Shown one piece after another: positions 159 to 16,763 of a stretch of DNA of 22,044 bases. A model generated the notes under the pieces. That model made no database searches. It was not told the DNA's origin and saw only the letters and a program-made list of their open reading frames with translations. Source of the DNA: Candidatus Micrarchaeaceae archaeon (GTDB lineage: Archaea; Micrarchaeota; Micrarchaeia; Micrarchaeales; CABMGC01); contig JAVYWZ010000013.1 in NCBI GenBank assembly GCA_038877255.1, positions 1 through 22,044 on the forward strand, written 5' to 3'. Both the position numbers and the translations under genes were made by a program. How positions within the stretch are numbered: the first letter of the stretch is position 1; every line of letters begins with the position of its first letter.

Positions 159-1430
159 TTAAACCCAGCCCCTGGCCTTCATTGCGTTTGCTACTCTTGT
201 AACAGCAACTATGTATGCGGCTTCTCTTGCATTTATCTTCTTTCCTTTGCTTGCATATTCCTTTTGAGTGCTTATGACATCTCTGAACGATTTTGTTATT
301 ATTGTGTCGAGCTTCTTGTATACTTCATCTGCGTCCCAATAGTAGCTTTCTATGTTCTGCACCCATTCAAAGTAAGACACTATAACGCCGCCTGAGTTTA
401 CGAGAAAGTCCGGCAGATCGAATACGTTGTTATTTGAAAGAATGCTGTCGGCTTCTGGAGTAACAGGGCCGTTTGCAAGCTCAAGCAATATCTTTGCACG
501 CACCTTGTCTGCATTTGCCTTCGTTATCTGGTTTTCTATTGCTGCGGGTATAAGCACATCAACGTCTGATTCTAGCAGTTCCTCGTTTGTTATCTTTTCA
601 GCGCCCTTGCCTTCATATGCCTGTACCGTATCTCGCTTCTGCTTTGCCTCTTGCAGCAACTTGTAATCGAGTCCTTTCTCAGAATAAACACCGCCCTTAG
701 AATCGCTTATAGCGACTACTTTTGAGCCAAATAGTCTAGTTACAAGGTCCATTGCGAACATGCCTGCATTTCCAAAGCCTTGTATTGCTACTTTTGCGTT
801 TTTCAGGTTTATCTTCTTAAGCTTTGCAGCTTCGCGGAGCACGTACATGCCACCCATTGCTGTAGAATCAAATCTGCCTTCAGAGCCCCAAACTTCAAGA
901 GGCTTGCCGGTTATTACTGCAAACTCATTTGTGCCGCTCATCTTGCTGTACTCATCCATCATCCACGCCATTATTTGAGGCGTTGTGTAAACATCTGGTG
1001 CCGGAATGTCCTTGTCAGGGCCTATGAAGCTTGCTATTGCGCGTATATACGCCCTTGACAAGTTTTCCAGCTCCTTATTGTTCATCTGCTTTGTATCGCA
1101 GATTACGCCGCCTTTGGCTCCGCCATAAGGTATGTTCGCAAGTGAGGTCTTCCAAGTCATCCATGCCGAAAGCGCCTTAACTGTGTCGAGGTTTTCCTGC
1201 GGATGAAATCTTATGCCACCTTTGCCAGGTCCTCTTGCGTTATTGTAAAGTACCCTGAATCCCGTGAACGTTTTCTTTGCGCCGTCGCGCATCTCAACAG
1301 GAAAGTTCACTATCACTGTTTGCATGGGCTCTCTGAGAAGCGCGAGTACATGCCTGTCTAGTCCCATAAGTTCTGCTGCAGCATCGAGCTGCGTCTGTGC
1401 TATTCTAAATGGGTTTAATTCTTCTGGCAT
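159..1430 (-). CDS. gdhA: Glu/Leu/Phe/Val dehydrogenase family, NAD(P)-dependent glutamate dehydrogenase
   Basis: Motifs GKGGIRFHP, GGAKGG, DIPAPD, ITGKP, Rossmann GFGNAG, ELANGP, GGVIVSYFEWVQN. GGTGA RBS upstream of ATG. Confidence 0.95.
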   Translation of the reverse strand: MPEELNPFRIAQTQLDAAAELMGLDRHVLALLREPMQTVIVNFPVEMRDGAKKTFTGFRVLYNNARGPGKGGIRFHPQENLDTVKALSAWMTWKTSLANIPYGGAKGGVICDTKQMNNKELENLSRAYIRAIASFIGPDKDIPAPDVYTTPQIMAWMMDEYSKMSGTNEFAVITGKPLEVWGSEGRFDSTAMGGMYVLREAAKLKKINLKNAKVAIQGFGNAGMFAMDLVTRLFGSKVVAISDSKGGVYSEKGLDYKLLQEAKQKRDTVQAYEGKGAEKITNEELLESDVDVLIPAAIENQITKANADKVRAKILLELANGPVTPEADSILSNNNVFDLPDFLVNSGGVIVSYFEWVQNIESYYWDADEVYKKLDTIITKSFRDVISTQKEYASKGKKINAREAAYIVAVTRVANAMKARGWV

Positions 1431-1444
1431 TTAGTCACCAAATA

Positions 1445-1654
1445 GTAACATCATCTTCCAACCGAATGCTGGAGCTGTGAGGAACATGAACATCTGCATA
1501 TCTAATTTTGCTTTTTGCTCAATTGAAGGATGTGCATGTTTATATTCAGTTTTCATGAAAATCATTGTTATGATTTTATGCGTCTCAAAATTTATACGCA
1601 TTTCAAGTTTCGCTCGAAGCCAATCTGAATGATAGAGTTTTTCGGCTCACTTTT
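1445..1654 (-). mobile_element. Non-autonomous miniature IS200/IS605 (tnpB-derived) element, copy A1
   Basis: Homologous to 2666-2833 (39 nt identical, 1471-1509 vs 2692-2730) and 16043-16244. Starts after TTAT, contains TnpB N-terminus relic MKTEYKHAHPSIEQKAKLDMQMF, ends hairpin + GATGTTAC. No target duplication. Confidence 0.8.
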
Positions 1655-1708
1655 ATAACTGTGTTATGTGCACAAAACTATAAATGTGTTGCGCTGCGCT
1701 GCGCTGCG

Positions 1709-2029
1709 TTAGCTGATTGCTCTCATTGCTGCTGTATTGTTGAGCAGCGATTCACAAAGCCTGTCTATTTTAGTGCTTATCATGCTGCTTTGCTTGCCTG
1801 CAAGTATGCTTTTGATTATTTCATCGGCAAGACCTTTGTTCGTTATGTATTTGCTAAGCTTCTCTATCTTTTTAGAATGCTTGCCTGTAACGCTTTTGCT
1901 TACCGCCGCTTGCACTATCCCCAGCTTGTCTGCTACTTCAGTTTGCGTAAGCCCATGGGCAATGAGCGCTTTTGAAACTGACACACGCACTGCTGGCAGT
2001 ATTATTTTTATTATGCTCTCGCACTCCAT
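1709..2029 (-). CDS. HTH transcriptional regulator, archaeal COG2522-like (XRE-type HTH)
   Basis: CE..K.ILPAVR...SKAL...GLTQTEVADKLGIVQAAVSK pattern typical of this family. Confidence 0.75.
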   Translation of the reverse strand: MECESIIKIILPAVRVSVSKALIAHGLTQTEVADKLGIVQAAVSKSVTGKHSKKIEKLSKYITNKGLADEIIKSILAGKQSSMISTKIDRLCESLLNNTAAMRAIS

Positions 2030-2050
2030 GCCATTGCCATTAGATTGCCA

Positions 2051-2620
2051 TTAGATTATACCCAACGCATTCTTTATTTTGCCCAATAATCCTTTGCCCG
2101 AGCTGCCTGAGCCTGTTTCATTGTCGTTATCTTGCCCCTCGCTCTCGTCATCTATTTCTTCAGACTTCTGCTTCTGCTGCTTCTTTGCTTGCTGAGCCTG
2201 CTGGGCTTGCTGTTGAATGCCAGGTAGGCCCGACTGAAACTTTGGCAATTGCAATTTGAAAAAGCCCTTGTTGTAACCAAGCTTGGAAATTGCACTTGTT
2301 ATTTCACCAAGTGCTTGCGATTTGGGATCTCGTATCACAAACACATTGGCATTGCTAGATTTGCCAAGGGCAACATCAGCTGCAGAATTGCAAACTGCAG
2401 CCATTATGCCTTCTTTTTTGTTCAGCACCATGCTGACAAGTATTGGATCCTTCGCCATTACTACGCACACGTCATAGCCATTACCAAGCTCGTTAGCTGC
2501 AATATCTGCAAGCTCGCCGCTCTGCACATTGACTTCTTTTGCCACTATGCTGTTGCTGCCAAGACCATTGACTACGGCATCTACGCTTCTGGGCACATTG
2601 CTAAGCACAAGTATGCGCAT
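2051..2620 (-). CDS. Degenerate RpiB/LacA/LacB-fold protein with Q-rich/acidic tail and C-terminal amphipathic helix
   Basis: SMVLNKKEGIMAAVC...A....SNANVFVI resembles the RpiB core (SIAANK..GIRAA.C......HNNANVL). DHAG and CGTG motifs absent. Confidence 0.6.
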   Translation of the reverse strand: MRILVLSNVPRSVDAVVNGLGSNSIVAKEVNVQSGELADIAANELGNGYDVCVVMAKDPILVSMVLNKKEGIMAAVCNSAADVALGKSSNANVFVIRDPKSQALGEITSAISKLGYNKGFFKLQLPKFQSGLPGIQQQAQQAQQAKKQQKQKSEEIDDESEGQDNDNETGSGSSGKGLLGKIKNALGII

Positions 2621-2665
2621 TAAGTCATTCCTACAATTTACTATACAATATGATGATTCTGTATT

Positions 2666-2833
2666 GTGACATACGCTCCCAACTGAATGCCGGAGCTGTG
2701 AGGAACATGAACATCTGCATATCTAATTTTCATTACGATCATGGTTATAGTTTTATGCATCTCAAAATTTATACGCATTTCTGCGGTTCGCTCGAAGCTA
2801 GTATCTGAATAATAGGGTTTTCCGCTCACTTTT
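2666..2833 (-). mobile_element. Non-autonomous miniature IS200/IS605 element, copy A2 (44-nt internal deletion relative to A1)
   Basis: TTAT|AAAAGTGAGC left end. Right end CTCCGGC-ATTCA-GTTGGGAG-CGTATGTCAC. Deletion lies between AAAA microhomologies. Confidence 0.8.
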
Positions 2834-2917
2834 ATAACCTAAACTTACAAAACATATTTTACAAAACATATTAAATATATGTGCGTGTAATATGCAAGCA
2901 ATTTAGAGAGGAGTAAT

Positions 2918-3151
2918 ATGAGAGGTCGTGAAGGACTCGTAACATGCGACAACTGCGGCAGAAAAGTACCTAGAAACAAGGCAGTAGCTTATGAGAAGGG
3001 AGTTTCCTTCTCAACAGATTTACACACTTCCAACGACATAAGATTCTTCGAAAGGAAGAAAGTGTACTATTGCATAAGCTGCGCTAAGCATCTAGGCATA
3101 TTTGAAAAGAAAAAAGAACAGGCAAACCGTAGGAAGGGCTTCGGCGTTTGA
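2918..3151 (+). CDS. rps26e: 30S ribosomal protein S26e (eS26)
   Basis: VTCDNCGRKVPRNKAV...YYCISCAKHLGI zinc-binding signature of eS26. Confidence 0.85.
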   Translation: MRGREGLVTCDNCGRKVPRNKAVAYEKGVSFSTDLHTSNDIRFFERKKVYYCISCAKHLGIFEKKKEQANRRKGFGV

Positions 3152-3889
3152 ATGCCAGTCGACGTTAACGACATATTGATTTTCAAGGAAAGGGGCATGG
3201 TGCAGGCTCAGGCGCAGCCATCGCATGCTACGGTTGGGCAGGCATACACATCACAGCAGGCGCAGGCTGCACAGCCAAAAGCAACGGTTAGCAAAACAAA
3301 ATCGGAAGAAGAGGTCGAGGCTGCAAGGCGCATAGAGGAAGAGGTAAAGGAACAGCTGGAAAAGCAAGAAGCCGAAGAAGAGGGATATGGCCGTAGCACT
3401 GAAGAGCATGCCAATGCTGCAAAATCAAAAGCAGGAAGAGTAATAGCAGGGCCCTTCAGCGTAATAGCAGGGGCTTTCCTGTTTGCAGATGCTGCTCTGC
3501 TTGCTTTCTTCGGCTATCCGCAATATGCGTTGATGTTCTCGCAATTCAAAGCTCTTGGCTTTTTCGGATTCATTAACTCGATAAATTATGCGTACGGCAC
3601 TTCGCTACTCAACCTTTTGCTGCTTCTCGCAATAGGCATATCAGGCCTGCTCATGATTGCCAGACTAGGAAAAATGTATATTGTGGCAGGCTCTCTTGCA
3701 GTGGCATTGCTAGTCTCTGCGAGCTTTGAATACTTGAGTAGCAACGCGACATACTTGGCAGTTGTTAGCGCAGTCACGTTCTTTAGCATAATAGCAATTG
3801 CATATAGCAGGATGAGTGCTGTTACTGTTGCTGAAGAAACCGAAACAGAGCCAGAACAGGTAGTATGGCCACGTATAGAAACTTTCTGA
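3152..3889 (+). CDS. Hypothetical membrane protein (about 4 TM helices, charged/low-complexity N-terminal region)
   Basis: 245-aa ORF whose ATG immediately follows the S26e stop (TGA ATG). Hydrophobic segments in the C-terminal half. Confidence 0.7.
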   Translation: MPVDVNDILIFKERGMVQAQAQPSHATVGQAYTSQQAQAAQPKATVSKTKSEEEVEAARRIEEEVKEQLEKQEAEEEGYGRSTEEHANAAKSKAGRVIAGPFSVIAGAFLFADAALLAFFGYPQYALMFSQFKALGFFGFINSINYAYGTSLLNLLLLLAIGISGLLMIARLGKMYIVAGSLAVALLVSASFEYLSSNATYLAVVSAVTFFSIIAIAYSRMSAVTVAEETETEPEQVVWPRIETF

Positions 3890-3940
3890 ATGCTATTTGT
3901 TTTGCAGCACATACCACACGCATTGCATACGGCGCATGCA

Positions 3941-4423
3941 CTACATGATTTTGTCCTGTTGCACGCTTATGCTGCTTGCATTTTGTAATTCGCGTCTCTG
4001 CAGCTTCTTGTCATAAAGCGACACGGCTACAGACGCTACAATACCGAAGATGAAGCTGAATACTATAAAGTATAATTGATATGACAGCGTAAATGAAAAC
4101 AGGCTCACTGTTGTGCCCGGAGCAACTAACATTGGAAGAATCGCATAGTAAATTATTATGAATATAGGAAGAACGACGAGCAGGGGCTTGAACTGTATTT
4201 TCATTGTCTCGCTCAATAGTGGAGTAAGCTCTTTCTGCTTTGCCGCAAGTGTTGCAGGATCTGCATGATTCTTGCTCAGCTCGGTAAGCTCCTTTGATTT
4301 TGCCTTTATGGTATTTTGTATCTCTCTCAGGCGCTTCGGATTGCCAAGCTTGCGCTGCAAAAATATGGAAAATACAACATATGCAGCGGCGCCAAGCACC
4401 AGAAAGATTGCAAAAAAGCTCAT
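3941..4423 (-). CDS. DUF106 / EMC3-TMCO1 family (Oxa1 superfamily) membrane insertase
   Basis: TM - coiled coil - (QFKPLLVVLPIF) TM - TM architecture. Canonical position downstream of adk. Confidence 0.8.
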   Translation of the reverse strand: MSFFAIFLVLGAAAYVVFSIFLQRKLGNPKRLREIQNTIKAKSKELTELSKNHADPATLAAKQKELTPLLSETMKIQFKPLLVVLPIFIIIYYAILPMLVAPGTTVSLFSFTLSYQLYFIVFSFIFGIVASVAVSLYDKKLQRRELQNASSISVQQDKIM

Positions 4424-4432
4424 AAAATAACC

Positions 4433-5005
4433 TTACATGTTTAGTTCCTGCAGAATACCTTTAAGCCTTTCCTGAGCTTCATTAAGACTGCCTTCCTTGT
4501 TATGTATTATGTAAAGAGGTATATTAAGGTATGCTGAAAAAAACGATGCTAACGAGAGGTTTATGCTTCTGTGCTGGTCTATTCCTTCCGCGGTGTCATG
4601 CTCGCGGTTTCTTGTGTTGTCGTTTGCGCGCCTGCTTAGCACCTCTTCTGTTGTGGCATCTATATATATTATGCCTTTCACAAAGCCTTTCATCGCATCG
4701 AGGTCGCGCATTGTCAAGCCAGGAGTGTACCTGTCTGCGCTTTTGATGCTCGCATGAGTATCAAGCAATACAGTTCCATCAGTTGCCTCTATTTGAGAGA
4801 AAATTTTGACACGCCATTCCTGCGATTTTTCAGCATAAGCAGGTATTGTTCTCATCTTGTCGCGGTCGTTTATTCCGTATTCCTGTTCGGCCATTTTTAG
4901 CATCTCATCTCCCATGTTGACTATTTTGGCGATTCCTGAAATGCCTGCAAGCACATGGCTTTTTCCTGCGCCCTGCGTTCCAAAAACAACGAGCAAATTT
5001 GCCAT
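4433..5005 (-). CDS. adkA: Archaeal adenylate kinase
   Basis: Start reassigned to MANLLVVFGTQGAGKS (P-loop). NMGDEM, RDKMR, DTHA and TPGL motifs of the archaeal AdkA family. Confidence 0.88.
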   Translation of the reverse strand: MANLLVVFGTQGAGKSHVLAGISGIAKIVNMGDEMLKMAEQEYGINDRDKMRTIPAYAEKSQEWRVKIFSQIEATDGTVLLDTHASIKSADRYTPGLTMRDLDAMKGFVKGIIYIDATTEEVLSRRANDNTRNREHDTAEGIDQHRSINLSLASFFSAYLNIPLYIIHNKEGSLNEAQERLKGILQELNM

Positions 5006-5024
5006 ATTATTAGTTAGAAGATTA

Positions 5025-5116
5025 AGTTTAAAAAAACAATCAAAAAGCAATTGAAAAGGAAAAAAGAAAAGGAAAAACGAAAAATAAAAATAAAAATAAA
5101 GGAAAAATAAAACAAA
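5025..5116 (-). terminator. Oligo-T tract terminator region after the thermosome gene
   Basis: Repeated T4-T7 runs on the minus strand directly after the stop codon, typical of archaeal intrinsic termination. Confidence 0.5.
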
Positions 5117-5126
5117 TGCGATGCGT

Positions 5127-6794
5127 TCAGTCTTCGCCTGCGCCTGCGCCTCCGCCAGGCACGCCACCCGGTGCGCCAGCACCGCCGGCAGGTTGCGAAG
5201 ACTTTGAGCTTATCATATCGTCTATGCGAAGTATTTGGACGCTTGCTTCTGTTGCGCTGGCTATTGCCTGCATCTTTATTTTTGTAGGCTCAATTACGCC
5301 GAGTTTGTCCATATCTCCGAGCACGCCCTTGAAGACGTCTATGCCATAAGACCTGCCTTCTTTTGTTCTCTGCTTGCTTCTCAATTGTACTATTGTGTCT
5401 ATGGGATCCATGCCTGCGCTGTCAGCCAGAGTTTTTGGTATTATTTCTAGCGAGTCTGCAAACGCCTGTATTGCGAGCTGCTCGCGGCCGCCAACTTCGT
5501 TTGCATAGTCTCTAAGTTCTTTTGCGAGGCTAGACTCTATAGCTCCGCCGCCGTACACGCAAGAGCCGTACTCAAGCGCAGCAGTAAGAGCACCTATTTC
5601 ATCGTCTATTGTTCTATTAGCTTCGTCTATTACCTGTTGATTGCCGCCGCGTACGAAAATAGTTACGCTCTTAGGATCCTTGCACTTTTCCACAAATACC
5701 ATTTCTTCGCCGCCTATCTTGCGTTCTTCGATAAGGCCAGCGAAGCCAGTATCTGCAGGTGAAAGGTCGTCAAGGCTCGTTACAAGCTTCGCGCCTGTTG
5801 CTTTTGAAAGCTTCTCTATGTCGCTCTTCTTAACGCGCCTAACCGCGAGTATACCAGCCTTTGCAAGATAGTGCTGCGCAACATCGTCTATGCCCTTCTC
5901 TACAAAGATTGCATTCGCTCCGCTCTGTGCTACCTTGTCAACCATCTCTTTGAGCATCTTCTCTTCCTGCTTGAGGAATGATTCCATCTGCTCTGGGGAT
6001 GTTATCTCAATGCGCGCGTCGGTCTCTGTTTTTTCTATTTCAAGAGCGACGTCAAGCAGTGCTATCTTTGCGTTAGACAACGACTTAGGCATTTGAGGAT
6101 GGGCCACTTCCTTGTCTATTAGCACGCCGTTTATAAGCTGCGTGTCTTCTATGCTGCCTCCTTCTTTTTTCTCCACTTTTATGTAGTCTTTATTAACAGT
6201 AATTTTGTTTCCTGTTTTTTCGACAACTTGCTTTACCGCTTTTATGACGATTTGCGCAAGATACTTGCGCGTAGAATCAGAGCCTATGTTCTTCGAGCCG
6301 CCTGCAATCTCAACGATTTTTTCGAGAAGGGCGTCGTCATCTACGTTTACCGCTATGGCGTATTTGCTAAGCAGATCTTGTGCCTTCTTGGCAGCCATGT
6401 CGTAGCCTTTTATTACAGTGTTAGGGTTTATGCCTTTCTCTATTAGGTCGCCGGCGTTTTTGAGGAGTTCTCCTGAAAGAACGACAACGCTTGTTGTGCC
6501 ATCTCCCACTTCCTTGTCCTGTGTCTTTGCTATTTCAACCAGGAGCTTTGCAACTGGGTGTTCTACATTCATTTCCTCAAGTATAGTAGCACCGTCGTTT
6601 GTTATGACTATATCGCCAAGCTCGCTCACCAGCATCTTGTCCATGCCCTTTGGGCCGAGCGTAGATTTCACTATGCTCGCTACTGCGTACGCGACTGCTA
6701 TATTGGCGCGCTGCGCCTCCCTGCCCAACAGCCTCGTGGCGCCCTCTGGCAGTATGTAATACTGTTGACCTAATGTGTTTTCGTTTGTTGCCAT
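5127..6794 (-). CDS. ths: Thermosome subunit (group II chaperonin)
   Basis: TLGPKGMDKML, ITNDGATIL, EVGDGTT, YGGGAIE motifs. AAGGTGA RBS. Confidence 0.97.
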   Translation of the reverse strand: MATNENTLGQQYYILPEGATRLLGREAQRANIAVAYAVASIVKSTLGPKGMDKMLVSELGDIVITNDGATILEEMNVEHPVAKLLVEIAKTQDKEVGDGTTSVVVLSGELLKNAGDLIEKGINPNTVIKGYDMAAKKAQDLLSKYAIAVNVDDDALLEKIVEIAGGSKNIGSDSTRKYLAQIVIKAVKQVVEKTGNKITVNKDYIKVEKKEGGSIEDTQLINGVLIDKEVAHPQMPKSLSNAKIALLDVALEIEKTETDARIEITSPEQMESFLKQEEKMLKEMVDKVAQSGANAIFVEKGIDDVAQHYLAKAGILAVRRVKKSDIEKLSKATGAKLVTSLDDLSPADTGFAGLIEERKIGGEEMVFVEKCKDPKSVTIFVRGGNQQVIDEANRTIDDEIGALTAALEYGSCVYGGGAIESSLAKELRDYANEVGGREQLAIQAFADSLEIIPKTLADSAGMDPIDTIVQLRSKQRTKEGRSYGIDVFKGVLGDMDKLGVIEPTKIKMQAIASATEASVQILRIDDMISSKSSQPAGGAGAPGGVPGGGAGAGED

Positions 6795-7105
6795 AAATTC
6801 ACCTTGTTAAAATAAACAGAAATTTGCCATTGCAAAATTTATATGTATATGATAATATTCTTTGATAATATTATTCCGCAAAGATTTAATAAGCTTATGG
6901 ACTCGCTTACCCTCGCCGTAGCGCATGCAGTTATGAAAACAAGGAGTTATTGTTTAGTATTGATTTCTGCATATGCTTTTTACAAATCATGCTTAAATGG
7001 AAAAGAAAAATATTGCTGTTTATGGTGCGTATGCTATTCGGCAATTGGATAACGCCTTAACCCTATTTATAAGCTTTTGCTAGAAAAATACTTTCACGTG
7101 CTTGT

Positions 7106-8827
7106 ATGAAAAGTGTAGCTGTAAGAATAGCAGGTGCAAACGGCGATGGAATAGAGTCAAGCGGAGCCTTGTTGAACAAGATTGCAGCAATGCAAGGCTT
7201 CCATGTTTTCGCCTATAGGGGCTACCAATCGATAATACGTGGAGGACATTTATGGTATCAGGTAAGAATCTCTGACGAGGAAGTATACAGTTATGGAGAC
7301 AAGATAGACGTGCTGATTGCGCTTAATCAAGATGCCATAGAAAACCAAAAGCCGCATCTTAATGCACATGCTACTGTGATTTACGACCCGAAGCATGTAA
7401 ACGTTGACGCACTGCCTGATAGCATAAGAAAATTGCCAATACCAATACTCGACATAGCAGTACAACAATCAGGAAATCCGGTAATGAGGAACGTAGCGGC
7501 GATAGGCGCACTCCTAAAAATATTAGGCATTGACATAAGCTCTTTTGACGAAGTAATAAGAAGCACTTTCGGGAGAAAAGGCGAGAAAATTATAACTGAT
7601 AACATAAAGGTAGCGAGCGCAGGCTACAACTACGAAGGGGTCAGCACGCTCTATGACATAAAAGGAGATGGCATAGTGAGACGTGTTCTTGATGGCAACA
7701 CAGCATTGTCAATAGGCGCTTATGCTGCAGATTGCAAAGCATATTTTGCATACCCGATGACCCCTGCCAGTGGCATACTTCAGTGGTTCGCCGCGCACGC
7801 GAACAAGGGTGTTTTGTTCAAACAAACAGAAGACGAAATAGCAGCAATAAATATGGCCATTGGCGCTGCAAGCGCAGGAGTAAGAGCCATGTGCGGAACA
7901 AGCGGCGGGGGCTTCTCGCTTATGGTAGAGGGCCTTGGCATGTCAGGCATGATAGAAGCACCGATAGTAGTGGTAATTTCGCAGAGATCCGGACCAAGCA
8001 CAGGCCTGCCTACAAAGCACTCGCAGGCAGACATGCTCTTCGTAATGCATGCATCACAAGGCGAATTCCCGAGGATAGTGGTTGCGCCTAGAACTATAGA
8101 GGAAAGCTTTGAAATTGGATCAAACGCATTTAACCTGGCAGACAGGTATCAGTGCCCTGTTCTCATTTTAATGGACCAATTCATTTCTGAAAGCTTCATG
8201 AGCATCAACGAGATTGATGCGAGCAAGGTAAGCATAGACCGTGGCAAAATAGTTGAAACGGCGCAGGCATCAGGCAAGTTTGAAAGATATAAAATCACAG
8301 ATGATGGCATTTCTCCGAGATCAATTCCAGGAACTCCTGGCTTAGAGTTCGTTGCTGCTAGCGATGAGCACGACACATATGGCAATTTGATAAGTGACTA
8401 CTTTGCAGGCATAGACAAATATGTGGAGTTGAGAAGAGACATGTATGCAAAGCGCATGAAAAAGCTTGAAACAATGCTCAGGAATGAAAGCGTGTTCGTG
8501 CCGCATGTTCTCAACGAAGACGCAAAGAAGTTTTTTGTAGTATATGGCTCAACCTACGGGCCAGCAAAAGAAGCAATGCAGATGCTTAACAACGAAGGCT
8601 TTGACTTTGGTATAATTTCGTTCAACTATCTGCTTCCACTAGACAAGGAAAAGACAAAGGCAGCATTGGAAAACAGGGATCTTATAGACGTAGAAGCTAA
8701 TTACAACGCGCAGCTCGCGCAATGGCTGCGCATGAACACAGGAATAAGCATTGAGAAAAAAATAAGGAAGTGGGATGGCGAGCCGTTTACTGCTGAAGAG
8801 ATTTATGAGCAGGCTAAAAGCCTGTAA
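7106..8827 (+). CDS. 2-oxoacid:ferredoxin oxidoreductase, fused gamma-alpha subunit
   Basis: IAGANGDGIESSG, IRGGH, YPMTPA, QTEDEIAA, TSGGGFSLM, QRSGPSTGLPT motifs. Confidence 0.93.
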   Translation: MKSVAVRIAGANGDGIESSGALLNKIAAMQGFHVFAYRGYQSIIRGGHLWYQVRISDEEVYSYGDKIDVLIALNQDAIENQKPHLNAHATVIYDPKHVNVDALPDSIRKLPIPILDIAVQQSGNPVMRNVAAIGALLKILGIDISSFDEVIRSTFGRKGEKIITDNIKVASAGYNYEGVSTLYDIKGDGIVRRVLDGNTALSIGAYAADCKAYFAYPMTPASGILQWFAAHANKGVLFKQTEDEIAAINMAIGAASAGVRAMCGTSGGGFSLMVEGLGMSGMIEAPIVVVISQRSGPSTGLPTKHSQADMLFVMHASQGEFPRIVVAPRTIEESFEIGSNAFNLADRYQCPVLILMDQFISESFMSINEIDASKVSIDRGKIVETAQASGKFERYKITDDGISPRSIPGTPGLEFVAASDEHDTYGNLISDYFAGIDKYVELRRDMYAKRMKKLETMLRNESVFVPHVLNEDAKKFFVVYGSTYGPAKEAMQMLNNEGFDFGIISFNYLLPLDKEKTKAALENRDLIDVEANYNAQLAQWLRMNTGISIEKKIRKWDGEPFTAEEIYEQAKSL

Positions 8828-8844
8828 TATGTTAAGATGATTTC

Positions 8845-9720
8845 ACGGAGCAACAAGTAAAACAAATTTACACATCTGGCGTAAAACCGGTATGGTGCCC
8901 TGGCTGCGGCGATTACGGCGTAGAAGCAGCAGTGCTCAAAGCACTCAACGATCTAGGCATTGATAAAAGCAAAATAATGATAGTATCGGGCATAGGCTGC
9001 AGTTCGGCAATGCCGCACGTTTTCAGCACTTATGGAATACACAGCCTGCACGGCCGTGTTCTGCCTGTTGCAACAGGGGCAAAACTGGCAAACGATGAGC
9101 TTACAGTAATAGGCACCGCTGGAGATGGAGACGCATATGGCATAGGCGTAGCACACCTCATACATGCTGCGAGGAGGAATATAGACATTACCTATGTTGT
9201 GATGAACAATGAAATATACGGTTTGACAACGGGCCAGGCATCTCCCACGAGCCTTATCGGCGCAAAGACAAAGTCAACGCCATTCGGCGATATAGAAGAA
9301 CCAGTAAATCCAATAGCGCTTGCGCTGAGCGCAGGTGCCACGTATGTTGCAAGAGGCTTCTCAGGCGAGCCTACGCATCTTGCCGAATTGATAAAACAAG
9401 GCATACTGCACAAGGGGTTTGCGCTAATAGATGTGTTCAGCCCGTGCGTCACGTTCAACATGCTAAATACATATGATTGGTTCAGGCAAAGAGTGTACAA
9501 GCTAGAAGCGCAGCACGACACGAGCAACATAGCAAGCGCATTTGACAAGGCAACAGAGGCAGAAAGAAGCGACTGGAGCAAAATACCCATAGGCATATTC
9601 TACAAGGCAAACAAACCCACATATTCTGAGCTTGACGTAACGCTCAAGAACGGCATCCTGGCAAAGCAGCAACAGCATACAGTACAGCAAGTGCAGGAGC
9701 TTCTTGATGAATATTTATAA
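8845..9720 (+). CDS. 2-oxoacid:ferredoxin oxidoreductase beta subunit (TPP-binding); probable ACG start
   Basis: Frame extends upstream of 8932 through the conserved WCPGCGDY to an in-frame TAA at 8833. Also [35 protein letters not shown]. Confidence 0.9.
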
Positions 9721-9734
9721 CACAAGGCAATTGC

Positions 9735-10787
9735 ATGGCAGGCATTGTTGGATATGGCGCGTATGTGCCTAAGTACCGCATAAAAGTAGAAGAGATAGCG
9801 AGGATGTGGGGCGAAGACGCAGAATCGGTAAAATCAGGGCTTAATATCGTTGAGAAGAGTGTGCCAGGAATAGATGAAGACTCTGCAACGATAGCAGTTG
9901 AAGCAGCAAGACGCGCAGTAAAGCACGCTGGAATTGACGCAGAGGAGATAGGAGCAATATATGTTGGCTCAGAATCGCCGCCTTATGCTGTTAAGCCAAC
10001 TGCAAGCATAGTTGTAGAAGCAATAGGAACTGGCCCTAACACTATGGCTTCAGACCTTGAGTTTGCTTGCAAAGCGGGCACAGACGGCATTCAGATAGTA
10101 ATGGCTCAAGTAGACAGCGGCATGATAAAATATGGGATGGCTATCGGCTCAGACACATCTCAGGGCAGGCCAGGCGACGCGCTAGAATATACGGCAAGCG
10201 CAGGAGGCGGCGCAATGATAATAGGCAATAAGAAGAGCGAAGTTATAGCAGACATAATAAAAACAATAAGCTATGTTACTGACACGCCTGATTTCTGGAG
10301 GAGAGACGGAGCTAAATATCCTTCGCATGGTGGCAGGTTCACTGGCGAGCCGGCATATTTCAAGCACATAATAAACGCGACAAAGCTGCTTTTTGAAAGC
10401 ACAGGCTTTAACGCAGGCGATTTTGCATACGCTGTGTTCCACCAGCCAAACGGCAAATTCCCGCTTATTGCGGCAAGGCAGCTGGGATTTTCAGATGAGC
10501 AGGTTATTCCAGGATTGCTAACCCCGAGAATAGGAAATACATACTCTGGAGCTTCAATGCTTGGCTTAGCAGCAGCGCTTGACAGAGCAAAGCCAGAAGA
10601 TAAAATACTCGTTACAAGCTTCGGCTCGGGCGCCGGGAGCGATTCTTTCGCGATAGAGGTTAAGGAACCGATAGAAGAGAAGAAGGGCAGAATTGAAGAA
10701 ACAGTGGAGCACATGATCAATACAGACAAGATATATCTAGACTACGCCGCGTATTTGAAGAACCGCGGCGCAATAGAAAAGGCATAG
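9735..10787 (+). CDS. Hydroxymethylglutaryl-CoA synthase (archaeal)
   Basis: [18 protein letters not shown] (catalytic Cys), [25 protein letters not shown]. Confidence 0.95.
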
Positions 10788-10795
10788 GTGCTAGT

Positions 10796-11959
10796 ATGAG
10801 AGATGTTGCTATAATAGGCGTTGGGCTTACTAAGTTTGGAGAGAGATGGGAATCCGGGCTCAAGGAGCTTATGGCTGAAGCTGGGCTTGCTGCTCTTGAA
10901 GATGCCAACATTACAAGCAAAGAAATACAGGCCATTTACGGCGGCAGCATGACTCCAGGCAGATTTACTGGCCAAGAGCACATAGCTGCGCTAATGGCAG
11001 ATCAACTTGGCCTTGGCAATATACCTGCAACGCGCGTAGAGAACGCGTGCGCAAGCGGCGGCACAGCGCTCAGGCAAGGGTACATGGCAGTAGCTAGCGG
11101 CCTGCACGATATAGTAGTAGTCGGCGGCGTAGAGAAAATGACCGATGTCGGCACTGACGGCGCAACAACTGCGCTTGGCGGTGCAGGCGACCAAGAATGG
11201 GAGCTCTCGCAGGGCATAACGTTCCCAGGCCTTTATGCGCTTATGGCAAAGAGGCATATGCATGACTATGGCACAACAGAAGAGCAGCTTGCCGCTGTTG
11301 CTGTAAAGAACCATGAAAATGCATACAAAAACAAGTATGCACAGTTCCACAAGCGCATAACTATTGAAGAGGTGCTAAATTCAAAGCTTGTTGCTGATCC
11401 TTTGAAGCTCCTTGACTGCTCGCCTATAACAGACGGCGCAGCTGCAATTGTTTTGGCACCGCTCGATACCGCAAAGAAGTACAACGACACGCCCATAAAG
11501 ATAGCTGCTAGCGAACAGGCAAGCGACACGCTAAGGCTTGCTGACAGAGATGACATAACAGGCATAAAGGCAGCGAGGATTGCTGCGCAGAATGCGTACA
11601 AGCACGCCGAAGTATCGCCAAAAGACATAAAAGTAGCAGAGGTTCACGACTGCTTCACAATAGCCGAGATAATGGCTATGGAAGACCTTGGCTTCTTCAA
11701 GAAGGGCGAGGCAGCAAAGGCAATAGAAGAAGGCCAAACTGCAATAAACGGTGTTGTATCAGTAAACACTAGCGGCGGCCTAAAGGGCTGCGGCCATCCT
11801 GTAGGTGCAACTGGCATAAAGCAGGCAGTCGAGATAACATGGCAGTTGCGCGGCGAAGCTGAAGGCAGGCAAGTTAGCGGTGCAGAAATAGGCCTTACGC
11901 ACAATGTAGGTGGCAGTGGCGCAACAGCAGTTGTGCACATACTCAAAAGGATAAACTAG
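10796..11959 (+). CDS. Acetoacetyl-CoA thiolase (archaeal SCP2-type)
   Basis: [32 protein letters not shown]. Confidence 0.95.
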
Positions 11960-11966
11960 TGATATT

Positions 11967-12362
11967 ATGGAAAAATCACCTGCTGATCTGTGGAGAAAGA
12001 TAAGAACAAGATACATGCTTGTAGGCAGTGTATGCGAAAACTGCGGAACAAAGTACTTTCCGCCCAGAGCAGTCTGTAAAAAATGCGGGAGAAATACAAA
12101 AATGAAAGAATACGTATTTTCTGGAAGAGGAGAAGTGTACTCTTTCACCAAGATAAGGGCGCCTACAGAAGAGTTTGAAGACATTGCGCCTTATATGATA
12201 GCCTTGATAAAGCTTGACGAAGGGCCCATAGTAGAGGCGCACGTTGTTGAGAGCGCAAAACCAATAGACATAGGAACAAAGGTCAGGCTCGTGTTCAGGA
12301 AGATGTACGAAGAAGGAGATGAAGGCCTTATTCATTACCAGTACAAATTTGAGCCCGTGTAA
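11967..12362 (+). CDS. DUF35 Zn-ribbon/OB-fold protein (scaffold of the thiolase/HMGS complex)
   Basis: CENCG..YFPPRAVCKKC, OB-fold region, GLIHYQYKF. Canonical third gene of the cluster. Confidence 0.92.
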   Translation: MEKSPADLWRKIRTRYMLVGSVCENCGTKYFPPRAVCKKCGRNTKMKEYVFSGRGEVYSFTKIRAPTEEFEDIAPYMIALIKLDEGPIVEAHVVESAKPIDIGTKVRLVFRKMYEEGDEGLIHYQYKFEPV

Positions 12363-12438
12363 CTATACAGAACAATGACTAATGCACAACAGCACAACAG
12401 CATAACAGCGACTGAGATTGTCTCATGTTGATTGCTGA

Positions 12439-12747
12439 CTATTGCTTGAGCAGCTCGGTTATTTTTGAATGATCAGGAACTTGCTTGATCTCTATTTTTA
12501 GCGAGCTGAGATTGTCTCGCATACGCTCGCCGAGCTCAGTGCAAAAGACTATTTGCGCCTTATTTTGCACAAGAAACTTAAGAAGCATGCCATGCCCACT
12601 CTGATCGCTCTCTGCTTTGTTGTGCGGGTTTTCCACAAACTTTATGCCTTGCGCTCCTGCTTCTGTGTCTGCTATCGCAAAATACTGCGCTCTGCCGAAG
12701 TGCTCAGATATATGTTCTTTGTCATCTGTAGGTATGCATACTATCAT
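12439..12747 (-). CDS. NifB/NifX-family (dinitrogenase FeMo-cofactor domain) protein
   Basis: MIVCIPTD...ISEHFGRAQYFAI...ENP...GHG pattern. Start reassigned to ATG at 12747. Confidence 0.85.
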   Translation of the reverse strand: MIVCIPTDDKEHISEHFGRAQYFAIADTEAGAQGIKFVENPHNKAESDQSGHGMLLKFLVQNKAQIVFCTELGERMRDNLSSLKIEIKQVPDHSKITELLKQ

Positions 12748-12784
12748 GCTATCACTATTCAAACAGAAACAAATTATTTTAAAG

Positions 12785-12899
12785 CGCCAGGACTGGGATT
12801 TTCACAGCGAAGCTGTTTTGAACCCAGAAGGCTCGGAAGAGCCATACGCTACCTAGAAATTCTCCAGGCGTACGCGTTACCGGATTCCGCCATCCTGGC
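12785..12899 (-). tRNA. tRNA-Ser(GGA) with two introns (37/38 at 12851-12861; 59/60 at 12799-12816)
   Basis: Acceptor GCCAGGA/TCCTGGC+G, anticodon stem TACGC/GCGTA, long variable arm GGCTC-TTCC-GAGCC, T stem CTGGG/CCCAG. Removing both inserts restores 7-nt loops. Confidence 0.92.
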
Positions 12900-13005
12900 T
12901 CAATACAGCTGCGCAAAAGAAATTAATAACACTTTCCTGTGTAATTTGCAACGAATCAACAAACAGGTTTTATAATTATACCATGCTAATTTTATCTGTG
13001 TATTC

Positions 13006-14454
13006 ATGGTAGAGAAAGACAGGGTTGAAAAGCTAGAGAAGCTTAAAAGCAAGGGCATAAACCCTTATCCTTACTCTTATGAGCAGACACACCATGCAGA
13101 AGAGATAAAAAATAAGTATCAAGACTTAGAGGGCAAAAAAGTAAAAGTAGCAGGAAGAATAATAGGAGAGCGCGAGATGGGCAAGCTCCACTTCTATGAC
13201 TTACTCGATTCCAGCAGCAAGATACAGATAATGGTAAGGGCAAACGTTGCTAGCAAGCAATCGATAGACATGCTTAAGCTGCTTGACGTTGGCGACATAA
13301 TAGGAGTGGAAGGAGCTGTTACAAAGACCCAGAAAGGTGAGATAAGCGTTGATGCAAAAGAGATAACGGTTCTTGCAAAATCCCTTAGCAGCTTGCCCGA
13401 AAAATTCCATGGGCTAAAAGACACTGACATACGCTATAGAAAAAGGTATTTAGACCTTATAGTAAACCCCGAAGCAAGAAAGATTTTCAGAACAAGGACT
13501 AAAATCACAGATTATATAAGAAATTTTCTTAATGAGAGAGGCTTCTTAGAGGTAGAAACACCAATTTTGCAGCCAGTATATGGGGGCGCTACTGCAAAGC
13601 CATTCAAAACCCACCACAATTACCTTGGCGTGGACATGTACCTACGCATAGCTGACGAGCTTTACCTTAAGAGGCTCATTATAGCTGGGCTTGAGCGCGT
13701 ATACGAATTCTCAAGAGACTTCAGGAATGAAGACGTAGACTCTGAGCACAACCCTGAATTTACAATGCTTGAATTTTACCAAGCATATGGCGATTACAGC
13801 ACGTTCATGCAGCTTACGGAAGAGCTTCTAAGTGGCCTTGTCAAAAGCCTTTACGGCACTTACAAGATAGAATACCAAAGCAATAGCATAAACTTTGAAC
13901 CACCATTCAAAAGGATATACTTCGTTGACGAAATAATGAAGCAATCGGGAATAGACATTACTGCTCTTACAGATGACAATGCAGAAGAGATAATAAAGAA
14001 AGAGCAGCTTGAAACCTCAATACATAATGCCTATCACGTAGCTGATGCGCTGTTTGACAAATACATAAAGCCATTGACAAAGGACCCTACTTTTGTGCTT
14101 GACTACCCTTCATTTATGTGCCCTCTTACAAAAGACAAGCGCGGTAATAGCAAGCTGAGCGAAAGGTTCGAACTTTTTGTAACAGGCAAAGAGATAGCAA
14201 ATACATATTCGGAGCTTACAGACCCGATTGAGCAGAGAAGCAAGTTTGAGGAGCAAGATGCTGAAAGAAGGAAAGGCGATCCTGAGGCGCCGCCAAGCGA
14301 CGATGATTTCTTAGAAGCCATAGAATACGGCATGCCTCCAACAGCAGGCATAGGCATAGGCATAGACAGGCTTGTCATGCTTCTAACTAATTCGCCTTCA
14401 ATAAAAGAGGTAATCTTATTCCCTACGGTAAAGCCCACACAGCAAGAAAGCTAA
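13006..14454 (+). CDS. lysS: Lysine--tRNA ligase, class II
   Basis: OB domain VAGRI...MGK, YRKRYLDL, EVETPIL, LRIADELYLKRL, FRNE, HNPEFTMLE, GMPPTAGIGIGIDRL. Confidence 0.97.
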   Translation: MVEKDRVEKLEKLKSKGINPYPYSYEQTHHAEEIKNKYQDLEGKKVKVAGRIIGEREMGKLHFYDLLDSSSKIQIMVRANVASKQSIDMLKLLDVGDIIGVEGAVTKTQKGEISVDAKEITVLAKSLSSLPEKFHGLKDTDIRYRKRYLDLIVNPEARKIFRTRTKITDYIRNFLNERGFLEVETPILQPVYGGATAKPFKTHHNYLGVDMYLRIADELYLKRLIIAGLERVYEFSRDFRNEDVDSEHNPEFTMLEFYQAYGDYSTFMQLTEELLSGLVKSLYGTYKIEYQSNSINFEPPFKRIYFVDEIMKQSGIDITALTDDNAEEIIKKEQLETSIHNAYHVADALFDKYIKPLTKDPTFVLDYPSFMCPLTKDKRGNSKLSERFELFVTGKEIANTYSELTDPIEQRSKFEEQDAERRKGDPEAPPSDDDFLEAIEYGMPPTAGIGIGIDRLVMLLTNSPSIKEVILFPTVKPTQQES

Positions 14455-14585
14455 ATGACAAAAACAAGAAATAAAAATTAGAAACTGCACAGTGCGCTTG
14501 ATGCAATATAGCCAAAGGCGTGCTGCAAAAATTTTGCAGTGGCATTAGCAGCTATGTTATTGGAATCATTACTCTTATAGAGCTG

Positions 14586-14659
14586 CGGGCCTGGAGGGAT
14601 TTGAACCCTCGACTTAGAGGTTAAAAGCCTCCCACTCTGCCATGCTGAGTTACAGGCCC
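14586..14659 (-). tRNA. tRNA-Lys(TTT)
   Basis: GGGCCTG/CAGGCCC+G acceptor, ACTC/GAGT D stem, GGAGG-CTTTTAA-CCTCT, GAGGG-TTCAAAT-CCCTC. Confidence 0.95.
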
Positions 14660-14724
14660 ATGTTTAGAATTTATATTCGTCAACCATATATAATTTATGC
14701 TAGCATTGAATTTTGGGTAGTTGT

Positions 14725-15843
14725 ATGCCATATAAAGATGCGCTCGAGCAGCGCCTTGATGAACTCAGGGAAGAATACGCAAGAACAAAATACAATAAGG
14801 CAACTGACAAGCACCTGGGCCTGCTGAGAGCACGCATCGCTAAGACAAAACGCGAGATAGAAATAAGGTCTAGGAAGAAGCATGGCGCAGGCTTCGGTGT
14901 GAAAAAGGCAGGAGATGCGACAGTGGTGCTTGTGGGCTTTCCGAAAGCGGGCAAGTCTTCTTTGCTTAACGCACTTACTGGCACTGAATCAAAAGTTGCC
15001 GATTATGCGTTTACCACTCTGGATGTGATACCTGGCATGCTAACCTATTCCGGAGCAAGCATACAGCTGCTTGACCTGCCTGGAATAATAGAAGGCGCGC
15101 ACTTAGGCAGGGGTGAAGGCACTAAAATAGCTAGCATAATACGCTCTGCTGACCTGCTGCTTATAGTGATAGATGCCACAACTCCCAATCAGCTCGATAC
15201 CGTGCTAGATGAGCTTTACAAGCTAAACATACGTGTGAACAAGGACAGGCCAAATATAGCGTTCGAAAAGTCGAGCAGAGGCGGCATAATAGTGGAAGGC
15301 GCGATAGAACAGGCAAGCAGGAAAGAAATAGCAGAGGCGCTTATTGCCAGTGGAATTTATAATGCTAATGTTGCAGTGCTAAAACGCATGCCAAGCGATG
15401 AGATAATAGACTACTTGCTAGAGAACATAACCTATGTAAAGGGCATTATAGCGGTAAACAAAAGCGACATTATCGGCATTGATGCTGCAGAAAAGCTTGC
15501 GAATAGCATAAGCAGCAAGACTGGGCTTATTGCAGTGCCCGTGAGTGCTCAAAACGGCACAAATCTAGATATGCTTAAGGAAACGTTGTTTAGCAACTCT
15601 GACCTCATAAGAGTTTACCTAAAGCCCAAAGGCTCAGAAGCAGACATGAAAAAGCCGATGATAATAAAGAAGGGCGCAACAGTGTTTGGCGTAGCAAAAA
15701 AGCTTAATTCGAAAATAGCAAAATATCTGAAGCATGCATATATCACCGGACCGAGCTCAAAATTCGCAAACCAAAGAGTTGGAATCGAGCACGTTATGCA
15801 AGACGGCGACATTGCAACGCTCGTTTATGAAAAGCATCAGTAA
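14725..15843 (+). CDS. DRG/OBG-family GTP-binding protein with TGS domain
   Basis: NKATDKH, GFPKAGKSS, YAFTT, DLPG, NKSD, C-terminal TGS. Start taken at ATG 14725. Confidence 0.92.
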   Translation: MPYKDALEQRLDELREEYARTKYNKATDKHLGLLRARIAKTKREIEIRSRKKHGAGFGVKKAGDATVVLVGFPKAGKSSLLNALTGTESKVADYAFTTLDVIPGMLTYSGASIQLLDLPGIIEGAHLGRGEGTKIASIIRSADLLLIVIDATTPNQLDTVLDELYKLNIRVNKDRPNIAFEKSSRGGIIVEGAIEQASRKEIAEALIASGIYNANVAVLKRMPSDEIIDYLLENITYVKGIIAVNKSDIIGIDAAEKLANSISSKTGLIAVPVSAQNGTNLDMLKETLFSNSDLIRVYLKPKGSEADMKKPMIIKKGATVFGVAKKLNSKIAKYLKHAYITGPSSKFANQRVGIEHVMQDGDIATLVYEKHQ

Positions 15844-15931
15844 AACAACAGAGTAAGAAGCATCGACGCCATTGCTTGCTTATTGGTGTGAGCTTCTTTG
15901 TAAGAATTAGGTTAGAATTAGGCGAATAAAG

Positions 15932-16003
15932 CGCCCTGAGTCGGGATTGAACCGACGACCTACCGGTTAACAGCCGGTCGCTCTACCACTGAGCTATCAG
16001 GGC
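15932..16003 (-). tRNA. tRNA-Asn(GTT)
   Basis: GCCCTGA/TCAGGGC+G, GCTC/GAGC, ACCGG-CTGTTAA-CCGGT, GTCGG-TTCAATC-CCGAC. Confidence 0.95.
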
Positions 16004-16042
16004 ACCAACATTTACGCATGAACATATTTTATCTCTTTTTAT

Positions 16043-16244
16043 AAAAGTGAGCTGAAACCTATCATTCAGATAGTGGCTTCGAGCGAAACTTGAAATGCGT
16101 ATAAATTTTGATGCATAAAACTATAACCATTATTGTAATGAAAACTGCATATAAATACCGTGCATATCCTTCAATGGAGCAAAAGGAAAATTAAATAGCA
16201 GATGTTCCTCGCAGCTCCAGCCTTCAGTTTGGAGCGTATTTTAC
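16043..16244 (+). mobile_element. Non-autonomous miniature IS200/IS605 element, copy A3
   Basis: After TTAT (16039-16042). Left hairpin CTATC-ATTCA-GATAG. ATG 16138 reads MKTAYKYRAYPSMEQKE (TnpB N-terminal HTH_OrfB-like). Right hairpin CTCCAGC-CTTCA-GTTTGGAG then CGTATTTTAC. Confidence 0.82.
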
Positions 16245-16759
16245 TTTTTACTTTCCAATCTGAAAACAAGCCTTGCTTCTTCTGGCGAAACCCGCCGCGC
16301 ATCTATCAACTTGAGTCCTTTTTCAAAATCTTTTCCCTCGAAAAGCCTTATGCCTTTTGTAACGAGCTGGGGCTCAACGTCAAGAATCAGCTCGTCAACT
16401 ACGCCTTGCTTTATGAAACTTGCGTTCACGTGGCCTCCGCCTATTACCAGCGCCTCGCTGAAGCCTTTCTGCTCAAGCATTTTCAGCACTTGCCTTGGCG
16501 ACTTGCCCGTGAAAACAACCTTGCTGCCCCACTTGTTTTTGATTTTTCTTTTTGTCATGACTACATTTAGGCAATTGTAAGGAAACTTGCCTTTCTTGAA
16601 CAGCGCTTCGTATGCGCGCCTGCCCATTATGCAGTTTCCTATGTCGTATGCCTTTTCCATCATACCCTGCCATTCTGTGCTAGTTATGAAGTCAAGCCTG
16701 TCTCCTGATTTCGCAATCATACCGTTAGGCGTAATTGCAGCGTACATAATTACTTTCAC
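16241..16759 (-). CDS. Dihydrofolate reductase / RibD C-terminal family protein
   Basis: YAAITPNGMIA, IMGRRAY, VIGGG, VDELILDVEP...GIRLF. GTG start after GAGGTGA, which overlaps the polX stop. Confidence 0.85.
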   Translation of the reverse strand: MKVIMYAAITPNGMIAKSGDRLDFITSTEWQGMMEKAYDIGNCIMGRRAYEALFKKGKFPYNCLNVVMTKRKIKNKWGSKVVFTGKSPRQVLKMLEQKGFSEALVIGGGHVNASFIKQGVVDELILDVEPQLVTKGIRLFEGKDFEKGLKLIDARRVSPEEARLVFRLESKK

Positions 16760-16763
16760 AAAA

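Follow-up and report, generated by a model that had tools for sequence, protein, structure and literature searches.

Three miniature tnpB-derived IS200/IS605 copies with one deletion junction on a Micrarchaeota contig

What are the three short, similar sequences found on one contig of a Candidatus Micrarchaeaceae archaeon, and how did they reach their present sites? The window, a stretch of 22,044 nucleotides (contig JAVYWZ010000013.1 of assembly GCA_038877255.1), is the entire contig C13 of a 30-contig, 713-kb genome (G000) that is 92% complete. An original prediction, made from its letters alone, had described three copies of a miniature tnpB-derived IS200/IS605 element, and had proposed that this miniature arose once, spread as a unit with the help of an HUH TnpA transposase acting in trans, and represents a family similar to palindrome-associated transposable elements (PATEs) or to MITEs (miniature transposable elements with inverted repeats). 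That first reading of the copies, here called A1, A2, and A3, as a PATE-like family is supported by our analysis. We consider it probable (about 0.8) that A1-A3 are nonautonomous, internally deleted PATE-type copies of a tnpB-only IS200/IS605 (IS1341-type) family of Candidatus Micrarchaeota.

The three copies occupy window positions 1445-1654(-), 2666-2833(-), and 16043-16244(+) and are described on the strand of their tnpB remnant. A1 (210 bp), on the minus strand, starts with a left end (1620-1654) holding an eroded left-hairpin remnant (1620-1637), followed by a TATAAAT box (1590-1596), an N-terminal tnpB remnant (1476-1556), and, across a junction between 1476 and 1475, a right end (1445-1475) that closes with GTTAC; its TTAT target, or transposon-adjacent motif, lies at 1655-1658. 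A3 (202 bp), on the plus strand, has its TTAT target at 16039-16042, the TATAAAT box at 16100-16106, the tnpB remnant at 16138-16213, the junction between 16213 and 16214, and a right end at 16214-16244 that finishes with TTTTAC. A2 (168 bp; TTAT target at 2834-2837 on the minus strand) carries the junction of A1 and A3 together with an additional 47-bp internal deletion, and ends GTCAC. The order in each copy is left hairpin, TATAAAT box, ATG and tnpB-like codons, right hairpin, and a 10-nucleotide (nt) tail. All three open with AAAAGTGAGC directly after TTAT; their right tips read TCAC in A2 and TTAC in A1 and A3. The loop is ATTCA in all three left hairpins and ATTCG, ATTCA, or CTTCA in the right hairpins. 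The ends, AAAAGTGAGC... and ...ATGTCAC/TTAC, form no terminal inverted repeats, and the flanks, with TTAT on the left and TATT, AATA, and TTTT on the right, contain no target duplication. The observation of three homologous copies bounded to the base is confirmed, and the predicted limits, TTAT starts, TCAC/TTAC ends, loops, TATAAAT boxes, and lack of target duplication all hold when the sequence is read again.

When trimmed to the element limits, A1-A3 are 87.3, 86.3, and 87.8% identical pairwise over aligned bases. With A1 as the query against the whole 713-kb genome, A3 was recovered with an expectation (E) value of 4.9e-50 and A2 with two matches (E values, 7.4e-27 and 1.1e-18). The predicted fusion of about 26 codons of the TnpB N terminus to the right hairpin is borne out by a junction common to all three copies, ...ATGTTCCTC(A/G)CA joined to GCTCC..., in which those codons run into the first bases of the right hairpin. 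A1 and A3 keep the tnpB start and about 26 codons, and in A2 the 47 bp additionally gone belong to this coding remnant. The deletion ends exactly at the last two bases (AG) of the right guide, the tetranucleotide in front of the right hairpin, and a minimal right end is retained. Across the 41 genomes searched, no copy but the three in the window was seen with this junction, and matches of A1 in relatives stop by query position 175. It differs from at least five other junctions of the family in this genome (those of the 550-bp type and of the copies on C21, C9, C24/C11, and C17, described below), as well as from those of loci L024 in G002 and L018 in G033. Its microhomology amounts to at most one A, which makes independent recurrence of the deletion unlikely; as the junction also differs from every other one in the family, common descent of A1-A3 is the simplest explanation.

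The parent family was found in relatives. In a genome of the same order, locus L019 holds a 406-amino-acid (aa) TnpB open reading frame (ORF) that starts MIVMKTAYKYRAYPSKEQK, lies between homologous left and right ends, and matches the Pfam families HTH_OrfB_IS605, OrfB_IS605, and Cas12f1-like_TNB, all above the cut-off. Records with the title Candidatus Micrarchaeota hold more than 15 further full-length loci, and in two congeners copies cut by contig ends stand behind an identical left end, TTTTAT followed by AAAAGTGAGCGGG.... The scan of genome contigs returned 32 related loci; the record title is "bacterium" for one of them and Candidatus Micrarchaeota, Micrarchaeaceae, or Micrarchaeia for the other 31. 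The viral contigs contained no relative of TnpB and no exact right-end match. In most full-length loci, the left end lies about 85 nt before the ATG and the right end 15 to 60 nt past the stop, closing with ...GGAGGATGTCAC. No tnpA lies between the ends of the full-length loci; the family is therefore of the IS1341 (tnpB-only) type.

The ends of the family are IS608-like. In this genome, TTAT precedes 17 of 19 left ends, and all 16 right ends close with TCAC (13/16) or TTAC (3/16), in agreement with the constant boundaries that had been predicted across genomic copies. At the left end, TTAT lies 17 nt before the foot of a hairpin with a 7- to 8-bp stem, and the four bases ahead of this hairpin are AAAA. 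The right end consists of the guide GAAG, an 8-bp stem with a 4- to 5-nt loop, and the tail AGGATGTCAC. An automatic parse of 38 right ends from this genome and its relatives found a 10-nt tail after the hairpin in 34, and the same 38 ends contain 21 distinct 5'-arm sequences that still pair. For IS608 of Helicobacter pylori, the member of the IS200/IS605 family that serves as mechanistic model, the source describes left cleavage 3' of a TTAC placed 19 nt ahead of the left hairpin, right cleavage 10 nt past the right hairpin, and 4-nt guides just 5' of both hairpin feet (PMC3201880). By that description, the left spacing is 19 nt in IS608 versus 17 nt in the family and the right tail is 10 nt in both, while the left guide and target are AAAG/TTAC in IS608 versus AAAA/TTAT in the family (PMC3201880). 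Furthermore, IS608 has both tnpA and tnpB, whereas the family, known here from its sequence alone, has tnpB only, and A1-A3 have neither gene.

Empty sites, which the original prediction had expected in relatives, are present for all three copies in a set of five genomes of the same genus (G001-G005). The A3 site lacks the element in 5/5 congeners, with 64 to 91 bp between the tRNA-Asn gene and the RibD_C-like gene compared with 254 bp in the window. The A2 site, between a 189-aa ORF and a divergent S26e-like gene, is likewise without the element in 5/5 congeners (60 to 123 bp versus 295 bp), and the A1 site is empty in four of the five (G001, G003, G004, and G005). In G004, the empty A1 site is precise to the base: AACACTGTTAT runs directly into TTTTGTTGGTGACAAAATG, where the window has AACACAGTTAT, A1, and then TATTTGGTGACTAAATG, and TTAT is followed to the right of the insertion point by TTTTGTTGGTGAC. 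This comparison fixes both boundaries of A1 to the base without a duplication. Contigs of four DNA runs were also compared over window positions 1200-3000. Those of run X1 bridge the right end (1215-1487) and the left end (1624-2231) of A1; X1 may be the sample from which the window was assembled and is not independent support. In none of the four runs did a contig join the sequence across A1 or A2, and the only joint listed, at 1223-1375 within the dehydrogenase gene, has just 23 letters on its short side. No RNA run is listed for the same interval.

A1-A3 do not make up the whole family but form a single tier within a larger swarm of derivatives produced by deletion. Profiles of the ends gave 16 left-end and 17 right-end matches in the genome (E values up to 0.1), and the copies behind them form nested deletion derivatives of one element with lengths of about 550, 255, 245, 200, 75, and 31 bp; several solo left or right ends are also present. 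The copies of about 550 bp lie at C4:8305, C7:5062, and C8:16906, and contig ends truncate two more, on C2 and C29. Their product is an intact 125-aa fusion in which TnpB's first 47 residues meet its last 78 or so at the junction GKTLT/KCGN (C4:8405-8779, C7:5172-5546, C8:17016-17390, and a contig-end-cut copy on C2; loci L003, L007, L008, and L004). A copy on C21 has another junction and keeps the full zinc finger, and a copy of about 255 bp on C9 has a third. A second gene-less subfamily has two copies, at C24:5003-5246 and C11:9319-9535(-). The smallest members are a copy of about 75 bp at C17:8975-9035(-), made of the left tip and the right hairpin, and a 31-bp copy at C15:12455-12483, in which the left tip AAAAGTGAGCGGGAAA is fused to GGAGAGGATGTCAC with no hairpins. 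With the family copies recognized, annotation can account for several "long" intergenic regions and breaks between contigs.

Several features of these other members deserve description in their own right. In the 125-aa fusion, TnpB residues 1-47 are joined to half a zinc finger, a DRDINAS helix, and the C-terminal tail, at one junction in 4/4 copies. Pairwise ratios of nonsynonymous to synonymous substitution (dN/dS) across the four copies are 0.19 to 0.46, on small counts and among copies that are not independent. The ratio is about 0.1 in the zinc-finger/RuvC-III part and 0.05 to 0.71 in the N-terminal part, where changes are very few; for the part that overlaps the omegaRNA, it is about 1 in 4/6 comparisons (0.71 and 0 in the others). 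Either a small protein that has been retained or conversion from full-length copies under selection could explain this signal. In the C24/C11 subfamily, a left end of the kind seen in A1-A3 is followed by about 100 nt without relation to tnpB, then by roughly the final 70 nt of the omegaRNA region and a right end. Even in the extreme miniatures on C15 and C17, TTAT or TTGT still stands in front of the element and TCAC closes it. Mini-elements at C4:8836-8900, C8:17447-17500, and L024 (G002:C1) end 10 to 25 nt upstream of tRNA or tRNA-like sequences; the tRNA-like sequence at the C4 mini-element received no ARAGORN call.

How could the short form have arisen and spread? One internal deletion would have removed everything from about codon 26 of tnpB up to the final two guide bases of the right end, so that a minimal right end of hairpin plus 10-nt tail came to follow a left end that keeps its guide and hairpin together with the promoter and start of tnpB. 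The resulting unit of about 200 bp would then have reached at least three sites, most likely by single-strand "peel and paste" by a Y1 (HUH) TnpA acting in trans, with insertion 3' of TTAT and no duplication. A further comparison bears on the transposase. Two elements of other Micrarchaeota that carry both tnpA and tnpB have a right hairpin and tail nearly matching those of the family: L090 (G043:C1:27500-30100), with GAAT...TCAA, and L091 (G045:C1:535000-537700), with GAAC...TCAG. As the family has GAAG/TCAC next to GAAT/TCAA and GAAC/TCAG in these relatives, all with a near-identical right hairpin, the last guide base and the last element base change together. GAAT is also the right guide of IS608. 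To judge from these sequences, a guide and a cleavage site that covary in this way are what TnpA-type recognition would be expected to leave, and L090 and L091 are candidate sources of a compatible TnpA, putatively of a transposase lineage with the matching hairpin.

Several findings weigh against this account, some of them concerning the missing partners of the miniature and others its history. The assembly contains no full-length parent: its only full-length tnpB genes, at C27:2132-3454 and C7:40058-41443, were rejected as candidates, their N termini and ends being unrelated to the family (a fragment of a C7-type tnpB element lies near C4:9200, adjoining the C4 mini-element). No match to Y1_Tnp (PF01797) was found in this genome or the five congeners, all of them drafts in which absence is not proof, nor in G032, G033, or G041, although the last of these has at least four copies of full length. 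Across the order, PF01797 occurs in 20 of the 41 genomes that were searched, this genome being included in the count, and it occurs in 3/5 genomes that hold full-length copies. Six loci next to tnpA genes of relatives (L077-L082) showed none of the end motifs of the family, the end profiles giving one weak right-end match there (L079; E value, 0.0019); among seven further tnpA loci, right-end matches occurred only at L083 and L085. Of what had been predicted, a full-length tnpB with the same ends thus exists in relatives, in L019 and the other loci above, but no parent in the assembly and no tnpA in this genome or its congeners accompanies it. Because no Y1 tnpA was found in these six genomes, we infer rather than observe a dependence on TnpA; the IS608-like ends and the covariation suggest that A1-A3 were mobilized in trans, as had been proposed. 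The family and its miniatures were nevertheless inserted at new sites in a genus without a detectable Y1 transposase (0/6 draft genomes). Mobilization by a TnpA from outside the cell lineage (from the host archaeon of the episymbiont, a plasmid, or a virus), or by a route independent of TnpA, is conceivable and seems quite unlikely.

The remaining points against the account concern the history of the three copies. At the A1 site of G002, the closest congener, a longer copy of a different right-hairpin subtype (L025, G002:C3:1-150; cut by the contig end) stands upstream of the dehydrogenase gene at the same TTAT as A1, with the omegaRNA-coding region still present and a decayed right hairpin of the CCCACGA... 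subtype; either the site was used a second time or an old insertion there underwent later remodelling. Derived characters also conflict, each uniting a different pair of copies: the middle of the left end is shared by A1 and A3, a 6-bp duplication with CTCAC by A1 and A2, and a CGT in the right tail by A2 and A3 (and also C17). These conflicts mean that A1-A3 exchanged sequence or mutated in parallel. Furthermore, the junction turns the right-end guide GAAG into ACAG or GCAG, a change that could impair cleavage. An alternative history would have longer elements inserted at the three sites, with the deletion allele spread among them by gene conversion or homologous recombination, or with A1 shrunk in place. 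The conflicting characters, which need recombination or parallel change, and the longer copy at the orthologous site in G002 speak in its favor, as does the position of all three complete copies with this junction on one 22-kb contig. However, the hairpin of the G002 occupant differs from that of A1 (CTCC...), making it no simple ancestor of A1, the A2 and A3 sites are empty in 5/5 congeners and require lineage-specific insertions in any case, and the contigs of one strong run contain no long intermediate at these sites. We regard this alternative as unlikely, and infer that A1-A3 spread by transposition and not by gene conversion. The proposal that the miniature arose once and spread as a unit remains the simplest reading of the shared junction, qualified by the conflicting characters that point to gene conversion between copies. 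That the similarity is due to chance, or to a shared host regulatory motif without a transposon origin, is refuted: such an idea has only the AT-rich, promoter-like look of TTATAAAAG in its favor, against E values down to 5e-50, recognizable tnpB coding sequence in the repeats, full-length relatives, and empty sites in congeners.

The genes around the copies raise one more possibility, that use by the host keeps them in place. A1 lies in the leader of a Glu/Leu/Phe/Val dehydrogenase gene (159-1430, minus strand; Pfam PF00208 and PF02812), 14 nt upstream of its ATG and between a native TATA-like box, TTTATAG (about 1675-1681), and a GGTGA ribosome-binding-like motif; given this position, dehydrogenase transcripts must start in A1 or cross it. 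The element TATA, or read-through from the split native promoter, would on this explanation drive or tune the downstream gene, which is the dehydrogenase for A1 and the 189-aa ORF for A2. The placement of A1 suits such a role, as do the TAA of the A1 remnant ORF directly abutting the ATG and the family members that lie 10 to 25 nt upstream of tRNA genes; another member lies at the same distance upstream of a gene that, by eye, looks like one for threonine synthase. On the other side, a same-strand gene start follows within 80 nt for 5/16 right ends by a crude gene call (7/16 when C7 and C4 are added by eye), against a background of 431 of 1838 intergenic TTAT sites (23%), so that no enrichment is claimed; A3 faces the 3' end of a gene, and A1-A3 show neutral-like decay, with 86 to 88% identity and indels. 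Retention through host use is accordingly very unlikely.

Other features of the surroundings are as follows. The A1 remnant ORF (window 1431-1565, minus strand; 44 codons) runs through the right end of the element to the TAA in front of the dehydrogenase start (GACTAAATG). A run of CAGCG repeats (GCAGCGCAGCGCAGCGCA, window 1688-1708) stands right after the stop of an HTH_3 gene and just upstream of the TATA-like box in front of A1. A3 has its left end 39 nt upstream of the 5' end of the tRNA-Asn gene (15931-16003, minus strand), one of the two tRNAs that were the only Rfam matches in the window at gathering thresholds. The RibD_C/DHFR-like gene (16241-16801, minus strand) has its TAA stop at 16241-16243, within the last bases of A3; its product ends ...LESKK, whereas the G002 counterpart ends ...LEA. 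On the other strand, the TTAT on which A3 landed appears to have contributed to this gene's stop codon before the insertion.

In their present state, A1-A3 look like decaying fossils, their hairpins and coding remnants being eroded. Their right ends fold as DNA with -3.0 to -5.2 kcal/mol, compared with -8 to -9 kcal/mol for intact family copies, and their left stems have 3 to 5 bp compared with 7 to 8 bp in the family. Only the last two bases (AG) of the right-end guide tetranucleotide are retained. The remnant ORFs of the three copies differ and that of A3 stops after 18 codons, which rejects a working peptide; the 44-aa ORF of A1 had no Pfam match. The idea that the copies carry an omegaRNA was also rejected, as that region upstream of the right hairpin is deleted, with none of it kept. 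With at most 26 codons left, no intact RuvC nuclease gene, and no omegaRNA scaffold, A1-A3 are not a functional TnpB/omegaRNA unit, and they are probably immobile today.

Are these elements of a new kind? Terminal inverted repeats, and usually target duplications as well, characterize MITEs. A1-A3 resemble them as short, noncoding, multicopy transposon derivatives that are missed by ORF-based annotation, but have neither terminal inverted repeats nor a target duplication and are not MITEs in the strict sense. Of the predicted PATE/MITE-like label, the PATE part fits. The PATEs of Haloquadratum walsbyi are described as IS605/IS1341-type elements after core deletion (PMC3119063). As far as that account goes, they share with A1-A3 the lack of terminal inverted repeats, near-terminal palindromes, the lack of a target duplication and of transposase coding space, an origin from tnpB-bearing IS1341-type elements by internal deletion (in theirs down to terminal-only forms of about 52 bp), and strain-specific insertions despite scarce or absent intact tnpA (PMC3119063). 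The Haloquadratum deletions are reported there to be flanked by direct repeats of at least 19 bp, whereas the junction of A1-A3 has at most 1 nt of microhomology (PMC3119063). A1-A3 also differ in belonging to another phylum (DPANN Micrarchaeota, with a 0.7-Mb genome), in their unrelated sequence, and in keeping the tnpB promoter and about 26 codons. The tnpB-only IS605 elements described in Geobacillus stearothermophilus similarly include tnpA-less copies with conserved ends and transposon-adjacent and transposon-encoded motifs, predicted movement in trans by one TnpA, and gene-less PATE-like members; an active tnpA is resident there, unlike in the genus studied here, where none was found (PMC10055086). 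For Micrarchaeota, a 2026 survey gives IS200/IS605 elements in more than 65% of genomes (PMC13343696). Our literature search, with subscription journals outside it, found no paper on PATE-like or nonautonomous IS605 elements in Micrarchaeota or DPANN. The A1-A3 family is of the PATE kind already known from Haloquadratum and Geobacillus and is no new kind of element.

These copies provide a base-level record of a PATE-type family, with graded shrinking copies, in a 0.7-Mb DPANN archaeon. The position of A1 in the leader of the dehydrogenase gene and the stop codon that A3 supplies to the RibD_C-like gene are relevant to annotation. IS608-type recognition of the ends in Micrarchaeota gains support from the natural three-way covariation between guide and cleavage site. 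If it were true that the family moved with a TnpA from outside the cell lineage, or by a route independent of TnpA, this would be relevant to a long-standing puzzle, the spread of IS1341-type elements that have tnpB only.

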